From Escherichia coli (lineage in GTDB: Bacteria; Pseudomonadota; Gammaproteobacteria; Enterobacterales; Enterobacteriaceae): DNA of 64,000 bases. The position numbers and the translations under genes were made by a program. Location: NCBI RefSeq assembly GCF_003334385.1, contig NZ_QOWN01000019.1; one strand, given 5' to 3'. The notes under the pieces are model-generated. The model ran no database searches, was not told where the DNA came from, and saw nothing but the letters and a program-made list of their open reading frames with translations. Below, one piece after another: positions 40,278 through 43,981 of this stretch (position 1 is the first letter of the stretch; each line of letters opens with the position of its first letter).

Positions 40278-41117
40278 TTAAACACGAGGCATATAGGTCT
40301 GATTCCGATATTCAATTGGAGTCAGACCTTTTAATTTCAGGCTAATTCTTCTGCTGTTGTAGTATTCAATATATTCCGTAACAGCATCCTTCAGTTCGCT
40401 TATATTACTGAACTCATCAAGATAAAAACACTCCGACTTTAAGGTTCCAAAGAAACACTCCACCACAGCATTATCCAGACAATTGCCTTTTCTGGACATG
40501 CTTTGTTTAATACCATGTTCTTTAAGGATATTTTGATATCTTCTCATACGATACTGCCATCCCTGGTCAGAGTGCAGAACAGGATGCTCGTGATTGAATG
40601 CCTGATCGAGCATATTCTCAACCATGTTCATCACTGGTCTTTCCGAAAGGCTGTAAGAAATAACTTCGTTGTTGAAGAGATCTATTACTGGAGACAAATA
40701 CAGCTTGCGCCCATTGACTGCAAATTCAGTAACATCGGTAACCCACTTCTCGTTTGGCCGCGTAGCCTTGAAATCTCTTTGGAGAACATTAGGGGCGGTT
40801 TGCCCTACCTCTCCTCTGTAAGAGCGGTATCGCTTGACCTTAATCGCTGCTTTAAGTGAGAGGGTTCCCATCAGGCGCTGAACAGCTTTATGGTTAATCT
40901 GTTTCCCTTCTCGATGAAGAGACAGCGTTACCCTACGGTATCCGTATCGGCCTCTATTCTCGTGATAAATCTCACTAATACGCTTTTTAACGTCCGCATA
41001 CTTGTCAGGCTTGCTGAGAGCCTTTAGATGATAATAAAACGTACTGCGCGGTATCTCCGCAGCCCTGAGAAGCTCATCAAGAGGATAAAACTGCCTTAGC
41101 TCGTTGAGTACTTTCAC
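40278..41117 (-). CDS. insK: IS150 transposase OrfB (DDE integrase domain); native start may lie a few codons upstream / be reached by -1 frameshift from OrfA
   Basis: Track ORF 279 aa; rve-type catalytic domain. Confidence 0.88.
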
Positions 41118-41635
41118 TTTTTCGTGGGATGAGCTAAGGCTTTCAGCTTTTTTAGATACATAAGCCGCGTTTCAAGAAATCGAACTTGCCTTTCAAGATC
41201 CTCAATGCGTCGGTCTTTTGACAGCTCCAATGCTGATGCCGCTTTTTCTGGATCAACTGATATTGCAATGTTTCTTTTGGTGCCAATCTTGAGCGCGCGT
41301 AAACCAGCTTCTCCGCGCTCTTCATAGACCTTCAGCCACCTGGCTACAGAACCACTACCAGCAAGCATAAAGTGAGCAGCAGCCTGATTAAGGGACATGT
41401 GCTGCTCGATCACAGCTTTCACGACCTTAATACGCAACTCTGGATCAGCACTAACGCCTTTAGGTTTGGGAATTAAACCTTTTTCTCCATGTTTTTCATA
41501 GAGGGCAACCCATGTCCTGACCTGGGTTCGGGGGACACCAAAACGTGCCGAGATGATCCTGTAACCATCATCAGTTGTGAAGTAGTGATTCACGACTTCA
41601 AGGCGCTTTTCAAAAGGGTATTTTGGCTTTGACAT
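41114..41635 (-). CDS. insJ: IS150 transposase OrfA (HTH), 173 aa
   Basis: Track ORF; A-rich slippery-like stretch near its 3' end. Confidence 0.88.
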   Translation of the reverse strand: MSKPKYPFEKRLEVVNHYFTTDDGYRIISARFGVPRTQVRTWVALYEKHGEKGLIPKPKGVSADPELRIKVVKAVIEQHMSLNQAAAHFMLAGSGSVARWLKVYEERGEAGLRALKIGTKRNIAISVDPEKAASALELSKDRRIEDLERQVRFLETRLMYLKKLKALAHPTKK

Positions 41636-41714: not shown

Positions 41715-41867
41715 ATGCCGCAGAAATATAGATTACTTTCTTTAATAGTGATTTGTTTCACGCTTTTATTTTTCACCTGGATGATAAGAGATTCACTGTG
41801 TGAATTGCATATTAAACAGGAAAGTTATGAGCTGGCGGCGTTTTTAGCCTGCAAATTGAAAGAGTAA
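41715..41867 (+). CDS. hokA: Hok-family type I toxin (50 aa)
   Basis: MPQKYRLLSLIVICFTLLFFTWMIRDSLCELHIKQESYELAAFLACKLKE; SD AGGAGG 8 nt upstream; IS150 end lies 32 bp upstream of ATG. Confidence 0.85.
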   Translation: MPQKYRLLSLIVICFTLLFFTWMIRDSLCELHIKQESYELAAFLACKLKE

Positions 41868-42000
41868 GAGTCTTCGGCGGGAAATTATTCCCGCCTTACT
41901 TACGGCGTTGCGCATTCTCATTGCACCCAAATTTATTCTTCACAAAAATAATAATAGATTTTATTACGCGATCGATTATTTATTTCCTGAAAACAAATAA

Positions 42001-42030
42001 AAAAATCCCCGCCAAATGGCAGGGATCTTA
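42001..42030 (-). terminator. rho-independent terminator of cspA
   Basis: Minus-strand hairpin (atccctgcc/ggcggggat, one mismatch) followed by TTTTTT. Confidence 0.7.
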
Positions 42031-42053
42031 GATTCTGTGCTTTTAAGCAGAGA

Positions 42054-42266
42054 TTACAGGCTGGTTACGTTACCAGCTGCCGGGCCTTTAGCGCCGCTTT
42101 CGATGGTGAAGGACACTTTCTGACCTTCGTCCAGAGATTTGTAACCATCGTTCTGGATAGCAGAGAAGTGTACGAACACATCTTTAGAGCCATCGTCAGG
42201 AGTGATGAAGCCGAAGCCTTTGTCAGCGTTGAACCATTTTACGATACCAGTCATTTTACCGGACAT
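42054..42266 (-). CDS. cspA: major cold-shock protein CspA (70 aa)
   Basis: [21 protein letters not shown]... RNP1/RNP2 motifs. Confidence 0.97.
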
Positions 42267-42408
42267 AGTGTATTACCTTTAATAATTAAGTGTGCCTTTC
42301 GGCGATATGGCGTGCTTTACAGATTTTGAAGCGTTAAAGGAATGTGCACTACGAGGGGTATCAACGATAACTCTTGAAGGGACTTGCCTTACTACACTGC
42401 TTTAATGG

Positions 42409-42462
42409 TCTGTACGTCAAACCGTTGATGTGCATTAAGCCACGCATTGGCGGGTGATGCAA
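42409..42462 (-). promoter_or_regulatory. cspA promoter (-35 TTGCAT, 17-bp spacer, -10 CTTAAT) and cold-box at start of the long 5' UTR
   Basis: Minus-strand TTGCAT (42457-42462) and CTTAAT (42434-42439); cold box TGACGTACAGA (42409-42419); AT-rich UP-like region upstream. Confidence 0.8.
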
Positions 42463-42546
42463 CAATTATTTTTCATATTTATGATTAATCGGTTGGAAAA
42501 CGGTCCTGTCATCAGGACCGTAAACAGCAATAAAGTGGATAAAAGT

Positions 42547-42837
42547 CTATTCCATCAACTGCTTACTTAATGCCGGGTTGGCTTGAATCAAACGCATCAA
42601 TTTTAGTTCGGCACTTGAAGGCTTCACGCGTCTGGATTCCCATTCCTTTACCATGGCGACTGATACGCCCAAAACCCGGGCGAAATCATCGATTTTTAAT
42701 CCTGTCCCTTTTCGTAACTGCTCAATTTCGGTACAGGACGTTGTTCTGTGCGTCAGGGTAATTTTCTGCGTTTCATCTTTAAAAACAATCTGTTCCAGGC
42801 TGCTCAACAGCTCATGCATTGGATCTTTATATTCCAT
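42547..42837 (-). CDS. yiaG: XRE-family HTH protein (96 aa)
   Basis: Track ORF; C-terminal HTH_XRE (DFARVLGVSVAMVKEWE). Confidence 0.85.
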   Translation of the reverse strand: MEYKDPMHELLSSLEQIVFKDETQKITLTHRTTSCTEIEQLRKGTGLKIDDFARVLGVSVAMVKEWESRRVKPSSAELKLMRLIQANPALSKQLME

Positions 42838-43270
42838 TGAAAACTCCTCAAATCACACTGCGGGATCGTGAATTGCATCGAAGCTCATTAAGAATAGTCG
42901 GGAAAAGCAGACACAGCGGGGTGAAGTCAGGGCATGCTCTGGCTATGATTCGATTCAGCCTGTCATTTAGCGTGACTTATAGCCACCTAACGATCTGATA
43001 AATGCCGATATATCTCTTACCACTCCTGTTTTGTAAAGATTTCGAAAATCTAACCTTCTGCGAAGGCGTAAATCTCTGGCTACAAAAAAGGCAACGGCAC
43101 TATCATTTTTTAACAATGAAACAACAAATTAACCTTGTTTCATTTTCTCCATGATTTTACCAGGAAGATTACGTAGAAAGGGTATCCTGCAAGCCTGTCC
43201 TGGACTATCCTTGTCACGTCAGACACGCGTGTGTCGTTGTGCGCTTTTTTTGGGTGAAAGGAGTAAGAAA

Positions 43271-43981
43271 ATGGCGACAGGAAAGTCCTGCTCTCGCTGG
43301 TTTGCGCCTCTTGCGGCGTTATTAATGGTAGTTAGCCTGAGTGGGTGTTTTGATAAAGAAGGCGATCAGCGTAAAGCGTTTATCGACTTCCTGCAGAATA
43401 CAGTGATGCGTAGCGGTGAACGTCTACCAACCCTGACTGCCGATCAGAAAAAACAGTTTGGTCCTTTTGTCTCTGATTACGCGATTCTGTATGGTTATTC
43501 TCAGCAGGTGAATCAGGCGATGGATTCCGGTCTGCGCCCGGTTGTAGACAGCGTTAACGCAATTCGCGTACCGCAGGATTACGTTACGCAAAGCGGTCCG
43601 CTGCGTGAAATGAACGGTTCGCTGGGTGTGCTGGCGCAACAACTGCAAAATGCGAAGTTGCAGGCCGATGCTGCGCACTCTGCGCTAAAACAGAGCGATG
43701 ATTTGAAACCGGTCTTTGATCAGGCATTCACCAAAGTGGTAACGACGCCAGCTGATGCATTGCAACCGTTGATTCCGGCGGCACAAACTTTCACGCAACA
43801 ACTGGTGATGGTTGGAGACTACATTGCTCAGCAAGGTACTCAGGTGAGCTTTGTCGCAAATGGCATCCAGTTCCCGACTTCACAGCAGGCAAGTGAATAT
43901 AACAAACTGATTGCGCCATTACCGGCACAGCATCAGGCGTTTAATCAGGCCTGGACTACAGCAGTTACTGCAACCCAATAA
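43271..43981 (+). CDS. yiaF: DUF3053 lipoprotein (236 aa)
   Basis: Native start MATGKSCSRWFAPLAALLMVVSLSGC (lipobox); track ORF over-extended. Confidence 0.85.
   Translation: MATGKSCSRWFAPLAALLMVVSLSGCFDKEGDQRKAFIDFLQNTVMRSGERLPTLTADQKKQFGPFVSDYAILYGYSQQVNQAMDSGLRPVVDSVNAIRVPQDYVTQSGPLREMNGSLGVLAQQLQNAKLQADAAHSALKQSDDLKPVFDQAFTKVVTTPADALQPLIPAAQTFTQQLVMVGDYIAQQGTQVSFVANGIQFPTSQQASEYNKLIAPLPAQHQAFNQAWTTAVTATQ

Follow-up and report, generated by a model that had tools for sequence, protein, structure and literature searches.

The yiaG locus

The window, a stretch of 64,000 nucleotides, consists of E. coli K-12-like DNA in which IS150 lies beside hokA and is followed by cspA, yiaG, yiaF and ghrB (Table 1). 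A 96-residue HTH_XRE protein had been proposed between cspA and yiaF from the sequence alone, and this ORF was confirmed by the ORF list, NCBIfam, Pfam and RefSeq, where it is annotated as yiaG. Its product has the sequence MEYKDPMHELLSSLEQIVFKDETQKITLTHRTTSCTEIEQLRKGTGLKIDDFARVLGVSVAMVKEWESRRVKPSSAELKLMRLIQANPALSKQLME. The protein matched the NCBIfam equivalog NF007481/PRK10072 over the full length (residues 1-96 on model positions 1-96) with 190.3 bits, above the curated cut-off of 110 bits, and therefore belongs to this orthologue group. Residues 38-80 matched Pfam HTH_3 (PF01381) with an E value of 8e-6, and five helices were predicted at residues 37-95 by AlphaFold2 (AF2), in agreement with the XRE/HTH_3 family. 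yiaG is a known E. coli gene, and the antitoxin kinship of its product has already been published (PMC11980606, PMC7232551).

yiaG is a core gene. A 1.5-kb stretch carrying it was found in 5423 of 5426 complete E. coli genomes (region coverage of at least 80%), and it was chromosomal every time. The orthologues from Enterobacteriaceae comprised 75 distinct sequences of 93-98 residues. As for the wider surroundings in the window, the IS150, hokA and ysaE genes show a K-12-type arrangement.

Table 1. Position of genes, protein segments and sequence elements around yiaG in the window
Feature	Position	Strand	Basis or remark
IS150 (insJK)	40278-41635		programmed frameshift; adjoins hokA
hokA	41715-41867		type I toxin gene
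ysaE	41844-41915		small annotated gene just downstream of cspA
cspA thermoregulator RNA	41999-42426	-	Rfam match (RF01766), 501 bits
cspA	42054-42266	-	downstream of yiaG, same strand
Terminator-like hairpin, ACGGUCCUG-AUGA-CAGGACCGU + UUUU	42496-42521	-	between yiaG stop and cspA promoter
yiaG CDS	42547-42837	-	ATG start, 96 aa + TAG stop; ORF list, NCBIfam PRK10072, RefSeq annotation
Five-helix XRE-type HTH domain, codons 37-95	42553-42729	-	Pfam, AF2, Foldseek
Linker, codons 19-36	42730-42783	-	variable, predicted disordered; low pLDDT, low conservation
N-terminal helix, codons 6-18, PMHELLSSLEQIV	42784-42822	-	AF2 helix; homologous to toxin-binding N-terminus of NadS/HigA2-type antitoxins
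Antisense ORF over yiaG, 72 aa	42653-42871	+	rejected as partner gene
Shine-Dalgarno, GAGGAG	42844-42849	-	6 nt 5' of yiaG ATG; read from sequence
yiaG leader element, TTCACGATCCCGCAGTGTGA, 20 nt	42853-42872	-	outer parts conserved, centre variable
yiaG extended -10, GACTATTCTTAA	42888-42899	-	sigma-S type, C at -13; conservation across genera and consensus match
Spacer ORF, 49 aa, TTG start	42967-43116	-	rejected as partner gene
Inverted repeat, AATGAAACAA / TTGTTTCATT	43115-43124 / 43135-43144		perfect, 10 nt, mid yiaF-yiaG spacer
Conserved region upstream of yiaF (promoter and leader)	43181-43270	+	conservation across genera
GGTATCYTG	43181-43189		invariant upstream of yiaF
yiaF -10-like word, GACTATCCTT	43203-43212	+	same word as in yiaG promoter
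yiaF leader hairpin, GACAC-GCGT-GTGTC	43222-43235		compensatory changes at two pairs
Run of seven T in yiaF leader	43245-43251		with TGTGCGC, after the leader hairpin
yiaF	43271-43981	+	DUF3053 lipoprotein, 236 aa; divergent, upstream of yiaG; RefSeq annotation

Expression unit

An extended -10 element of the sigma-S type was predicted upstream of yiaG. It was near-invariant from Escherichia to Franconibacter in the 46 loci in which yiaF is directly adjacent, and it was also kept where yiaG has another upstream neighbour. The sigma-S extended -10 consensus is KCTAYRCTTAA. The sequence ACTATTCTTAA agrees with it at about 9-10 of 11 positions and is conserved across genera. As in genes of the sigma-S regulon, the element combines a C at -13 with a TAA tail, a likeness that concerns the control of yiaG and not the role of its product. 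The prediction agrees with the published rpoS dependence of yiaG expression (PMC4512719, 10.1101/493015, PMC6055005), as well as with the fact that yiaG fusions routinely serve as standard sigma-S reporters (10.1101/493015). In expression data yiaG co-clusters with gadE, bolA and cspD (PMC4512719, PMC6055005). Published rpoS dependence and the predicted -10 element together place yiaG in the sigma-S regulon.

The Shine-Dalgarno sequence, a strong ribosome-binding site, was nearly invariant across 22 genera, and the 20-nt leader element upstream of it was conserved in most Enterobacteriaceae. This element counts as a candidate site for protein binding and no more; its outer inverted repeat amounts to 4 bp only, and the conservation of the leader may have other causes than protein binding. 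A motif search of the 64-kb window returned this single match and no second copy. No consensus RNA structure was predicted in the yiaG leader by RNAalifold. A 5-bp stem drawn by hand was discarded, as it lacked covariation and 93 of 500 shuffled sequences were equally good. Rfam families were found in neither the yiaG nor the yiaF leader, the cspA thermoregulator being the sole match.

Downstream of the gene, RNA folding gave the terminator-like hairpin a 9-bp stem and a z-score of -2.59; a simple terminator scan missed it owing to the short U-tract. The cspA thermoregulator begins approximately 120 nt past the yiaG stop codon, which means that the yiaG terminator and the cspA promoter/UP region are accommodated in one short spacer. 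Having its own -10 element, leader, Shine-Dalgarno sequence and 3' hairpin, yiaG is a monocistronic unit.

Gene neighbourhood

A scan of species-representative genomes gave 80 Enterobacteriaceae loci whose yiaG orthologues are 68-97% identical. In 69 of them a divergent yiaF was located upstream of yiaG at a distance of no more than 3 kb, either directly adjacent (46 loci, with a spacer of 322-504 bp; 433 bp in the window) or with one gene inserted between the two (23 loci), while it was missing from the 3-kb flank in the other 11. A divergent yiaF was also present at all three loci of 44-51% identical orthologues for which enough flank was available, and in Pantoea the divergent pair is kept with ggt inserted. 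In contrast, cspA lay downstream of yiaG on the same strand in just 27 of the 80 loci. The two flanking genes named in the sequence-only reading were thus right for the window, but of the two only yiaF recurs as the neighbour of yiaG across genera. Since yiaF is missing in 11 loci and separated in 23, a functional tie between the two genes is not obligatory.

In Klebsiella, Raoultella and some other genera the inserted gene encodes an MFS transporter. Inserted genes were located, for example, at 1313-2764 in locus L055, 1948-3315 in L097 and 1166-2764 in L095. Despite the inserted MFS gene, yiaG of Klebsiella and Raoultella keeps its own conserved -10 element; the Pantoea sequence upstream of yiaG did not align over this element. 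One record titled 'Chryseobacterium sp. 18061' (L035, CACSKA010000004.1) showed a Citrobacter-like yiaF/yiaG/ghrB region with a yiaG 77% identical to that of E. coli; a wrong label or contamination is the probable cause.

The -10-like word of yiaF is the same as that in the yiaG promoter. In all 64 kb of the window GACTATYCTT had exactly two occurrences, one at yiaF and one at yiaG, against an expectation of 0.14, and one of 100 shuffles reached two occurrences. The core of the yiaF word was invariant across 33 genera, and the yiaG copy was likewise conserved. The simplest reading of this pattern would be co-control of yiaF and yiaG by sigma-S; direct published evidence for sigma-S control of yiaF was not found. 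Beyond the -10 word, no motif shared by the yiaF region and the yiaG leader was found, operator-like or otherwise.

About 90-110 bp 5' of the yiaF start codon, covering promoter and leader, were highly conserved across genera. Together with the T run that follows it, the leader hairpin resembles a terminator or attenuator located within the yiaF leader. The inverted repeat in the middle of the spacer was rejected as an operator, being unconserved outside Escherichia. yiaF itself has been described as a colonisation-resistance gene that affects pathogen colonisation of commensal biofilms (PMC3646849).

Absence of a toxin gene

Relatives of YiaG at 32-39% identity had a PF06296 RelE or a RelE/ParE-family gene immediately upstream. 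On chromosomes, toxin-linked relatives were found at two E. coli NRG857c loci and, with a PF06296 toxin, at two metagenomic or Neisseriaceae loci, while the toxin-linked NadS genes on plasmids of E. coli, Klebsiella and Citrobacter encode proteins 36-39% identical to YiaG. These findings agree with the published 'relE-yiaG modules' of enterobacterial islands and plasmids, in which NadS-type antitoxins are paired with RelE/ParE (PF06296-type) toxins (PMC11980606, PMC7232551).

No such partner was detected beside yiaG. The sequence-only reading had described the gene as solitary, and no adjoining toxin gene was found in the window or in the 80 species-level loci, where RelE/ParE-like sequences were lacking within 3 kb of yiaG in every case. 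Toxin genes were likewise missing at the divergent orthologue loci with 44-51% identity (Entomohabitans, Pantoea and others), whose called neighbours were DUF3053, MFS, ggt, glyS and bax genes. The result is a boundary in identity: relatives at or below 41% are encoded directly behind a RelE/ParE toxin, and orthologues at or above 44% never are. A cognate toxin adjacent in the same operon, as a type II toxin-antitoxin (TA) system requires, was thus absent from the window spacer and from the 80 orthologue loci.

A relic of a toxin gene was searched for in the region 42400-43300 by tblastn (word size 2, E up to 100) with three partner toxins of YiaG relatives, and the best match, of 18 bits, was noise. 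The default search with the same toxins over the whole window (E up to 10) also returned noise only. The only same-strand ORF in the yiaF-yiaG spacer, of 49 codons with a TTG start, was rejected as a cryptic partner, as mid-spacer DNA is unconserved between genera. The antisense ORF over yiaG was rejected too. Of 86 distinct orthologue sequences, 63 leave its frame open for at least 70 codons while 23 break it, so that the frame is probably a by-product of codon usage. The earlier statement that no adjacent toxin-sized ORF has coding character was therefore upheld.

A phage repressor origin was considered and set aside, because only four weak phage matches were found, which spanned all or part of the HTH domain; two strong 'phage' matches to YiaG proved to be Salmonella contigs. 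Membership in a defence system was likewise discarded, as PADLOC gave only weak generic HTH matches of at most 17 bits.

The toxin gene has gone from yiaG without trace. With no toxin in the orthologue loci, in the window or in maintained ORFs, the solitary state of yiaG is old and stable. The sequence-only reading had left room for a cryptic partner, and none was found in the window by tblastn or at the 80 orthologue loci. The reading that an unannotated small or antisense ORF at yiaG encodes the toxin of a cryptic TA pair is therefore largely refuted and highly improbable. Several ORFs of 25-72 codons do lie in and around yiaG, and the long-open antisense frame could be counted in its favour; however, that frame is broken in more than a quarter of the orthologue sequences, the spacer ORFs lie in unconserved DNA, and no similarity to partner toxins was seen. 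Moreover, the toxin of the relatives stands upstream on the same strand, a position taken here by the unconserved TTG-start ORF.

Kinship with antitoxins

The sequence-only reading had called proteins of this kind antitoxin-like, and for YiaG this was borne out by both profile and structure comparison. When YiaG orthologues were aligned with six toxin-linked relatives by hhalign, the probability was 99.4% (E 2.7e-21), and the 94 aligned columns took in the N-terminus. On profile evidence YiaG is accordingly homologous over its full length to NadS-type antitoxins that are linked to toxins. Among PDB entries the best sequence match was HigA2 of Vibrio cholerae (residues 33-91, E about 5e-3), that of MqsA being much weaker. 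Homology to the antitoxin component of type II systems thus extends over the toxin-binding segment (hhalign), with HigA2 as the top PDB match. In the Foldseek search the top eight matches were all HigA2 chains, with an rmsd of 1.8-2.1 A over the C-terminal domain, a TM score up to 0.83 and 26-28% identity in this domain. The C-terminal domain of MqsA ranked after HigA2 (3fmy, TM 0.74), and DdrO, P2 C and P22 c2 were also among the fold matches.

HigA2, the antitoxin of HigB2 (PDB 5j9i, 5jaa, 8a0x), has the same plan as YiaG: an N-terminal segment followed by a C-terminal XRE HTH domain. The segment is disordered in free HigA2, and a matching one precedes the HTH domain of YiaG. In HigA2 this segment folds onto the toxin and neutralises it (PMC5416850), and its fuzzy contacts make the binding of the operator stronger (PMC11006873). 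HigA2 represses its own operon at TGTACGC-N5-GCGTACA (PMC11006873). Residues W66, E67 and R70 of YiaG equal W73, E74 and R77 of HigA2, but in the sequence alignment the base-reading residues R68, E71, N72 and R77 of HigA2 correspond to A61, K64, E65 and R70, so that three of four differ. Given these differences, the HigA2 operator cannot be shared by YiaG, and the DNA specificity of the two proteins would differ. The genetic context is also distinct: HigA2 is encoded directly behind the toxin gene higB2, whereas yiaG has no toxin gene and a promoter of the sigma-S type.

YiaG is related to the NadS and MqsA families, as judged from model scores, and is a member of neither. The NCBIfam NadS model (NF041265) matched residues 8-94 on model positions 5-91 of 94, yet the score of 37.1 bits was below the curated cut-off of 60 bits despite the full-length alignment. 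NadS proteins resemble YiaG in their collinear homology including the N-terminal helix, in size (94-101 residues) and in hosts. However, their identity to YiaG is just 25-39%, their N-terminal sequences differ, and in every NadS-family gene and toxin-linked relative examined a toxin gene was immediately upstream, as in none of the YiaG orthologues. The MqsA model TIGR03830 (CxxCG_CxxCG_HTH) was matched by residues 30-94 at model positions 62-126 of 127, that is by its C-terminal half only, with 43.3 bits against a cut-off of 61.8 bits. This family also needs an N-terminal zinc finger with two CxxCG motifs. MqsA (YgiT) has a related C-terminal HTH domain, but its zinc-binding N-terminal domain with two CxxC motifs contrasts with the simple helix of YiaG, which has a single cysteine (C35) and no CxxC, and MqsA is paired with MqsR whereas YiaG has no partner toxin.

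Protein architecture and conservation

The whole architecture of an antitoxin is kept in YiaG, in which a short helix at the N-terminus is joined to a five-helix XRE HTH domain by a linker that is variable and predicted to be disordered. The AlphaFold2 model, built on 11 orthologue sequences only, had a pLDDT of 76. The mean pLDDT fell to 50 in residues 21-30 and 63 in residues 31-40, with values below 50 at residues 29-33. The C-terminal part of Pfam MqsA_antitoxin matched residues 30-92, and the N-terminal helix aligned with the N-termini of the toxin-linked relatives.

Conservation was highest at the N-terminus. Over the 75 distinct orthologues the top residue had a mean frequency of 0.92 in residues 1-18, 0.85 in the HTH domain and 0.61 in the linker. 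As synonymous sites varied in codons 6-16, the constraint on the N-terminal helix acts at the protein level, and it is stronger than that on the DNA-binding domain. W66, E67 and R70 were among the conserved HTH residues. Position 64, equivalent to a base-reading position of HigA2, varied among orthologues. Such variation would be unexpected if a regulator had a single fixed operator, and the DNA specificity of YiaG may be loose.

Tandem arrangements of the domain were also encountered. In a search of representative proteins, many long sequences (about 160 to 4162 residues) contained 2-8 tandem YiaG-HTH-like stretches, for example P0123, P0134, P0148 and P0252.

Possible functions of YiaG

Taken as a whole, yiaG is probably a vertically inherited, sigma-S-driven single-gene unit of the Enterobacteriaceae and Pantoea, and a toxin-less descendant of NadS/HigA2-type antitoxins that partner RelE/ParE toxins. 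Transcription of yiaG, and probably of yiaF as well, would be carried out by the sigma-S form of RNA polymerase in stressed or stationary-phase cells. By analogy with HigA2, YiaG would dimerise through helices 4-5, and helix 3 would read an inverted-repeat DNA site. The conserved N-terminal helix might contact a modulating protein partner, or boost DNA binding as the disordered N-terminus of HigA2 does. The most plausible first target would be the leader element of yiaG itself, possibly together with the shared control region of yiaF and yiaG. Against this explanation stand the variability of position 64, a leader element backed by conservation alone, the inconstant linkage to yiaF and the small set of 11 sequences behind the AF2 model. 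ChIP-exo of tagged YiaG also counts against it, having yielded no peaks in the conditions of that experiment (PMC6237786 / 10.1101/343913). The sequence-only reading had stated that its TA proposal would fall with consistent solitary occurrence across genomes and a defined regulon unrelated to TA biology; the solitary occurrence was found, whereas the ChIP-exo data provide no such regulon.

Other roles were weighed against the same observations. YiaG could be a dedicated local regulator that binds the shared 433-bp region and tunes YiaF, the DUF3053 lipoprotein, when cells are in stationary phase or form a biofilm. In favour of this role, regulators are commonly encoded divergently from their targets, the yiaF-yiaG pair is met in divergent orientation from Escherichia to Pantoea while the opposite flank varies, and a stretch of about 110 bp 5' of the yiaF start codon shows high conservation. 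Yet the yiaG promoter and sequence are kept even where a gene is inserted (23 loci) or no yiaF is nearby (11 loci), the -10 word is the only motif found in both the yiaF region and the yiaG leader, and ChIP-exo showed no peak, at yiaF included (PMC6237786); we regard this role as unlikely. A protein adaptor is a very doubtful alternative. YiaG would no longer be a sequence-specific factor; its N-terminal helix would bind or inhibit a host protein and the HTH domain would serve as a dimerisation scaffold. This would fit the lack of ChIP-exo peaks, an N-terminal helix conserved above the HTH domain and the variability at a presumed base-reading position. However, the HTH domain is still well conserved, including W66, E67 and R70, and the ChIP-exo conditions were limited for a low-abundance, sigma-S-dependent protein.

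An orphan antitoxin acting in trans was also considered, in which the N-terminal helix neutralises RelE/ParE toxins of incoming RelE-NadS modules on plasmids or islands. Such an anti-addiction function would blunt post-segregational killing or modulate RelE/ParE toxins under stress. It would account for the N-terminal helix, toxin-neutralising in HigA2 (PMC5416850), being the best-conserved part of YiaG though no toxin is linked. Also in its favour, plasmids of E. coli, Klebsiella and Citrobacter carry circulating RelE/ParE-NadS modules whose antitoxins share 36-39% identity with YiaG, and such modules occur in E. coli islands alongside yiaG (PMC7232551). On the other hand, recognition is usually specific, and YiaG is only 25-39% identical to the toxin-linked antitoxins, with different N-termini and a score under the NadS cut-off (37 against 60 bits). 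yiaG is moreover a core gene with a sigma-S promoter and no link to mobile elements, and neutralisation is reported by no experiment, so that this function is quite unlikely.

Significance

The sigma-S stress response is widely monitored through yiaG, and its product is among the transcription-factor candidates of E. coli K-12. For this known gene the result is incremental and comparative, and adds to the literature the yiaF-yiaG divergon, the -10 word shared by both genes, the identity boundary between solitary and toxin-linked relatives, and the constraint on the N-terminal helix. A more far-reaching proposal, advanced here as a long shot, is that YiaG is a domesticated antitoxin whose N-terminal helix binds either the RelE/ParE toxins of incoming plasmids and islands or a host partner that couples the stress response to the yiaF-yiaG divergon. 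If the toxin option were true, YiaG would give the core genome a sigma-S-timed anti-addiction immunity. A YiaG that neutralised plasmid toxins, or that connected yiaF with sigma-S, would stand as a clear example of a domesticated antitoxin.
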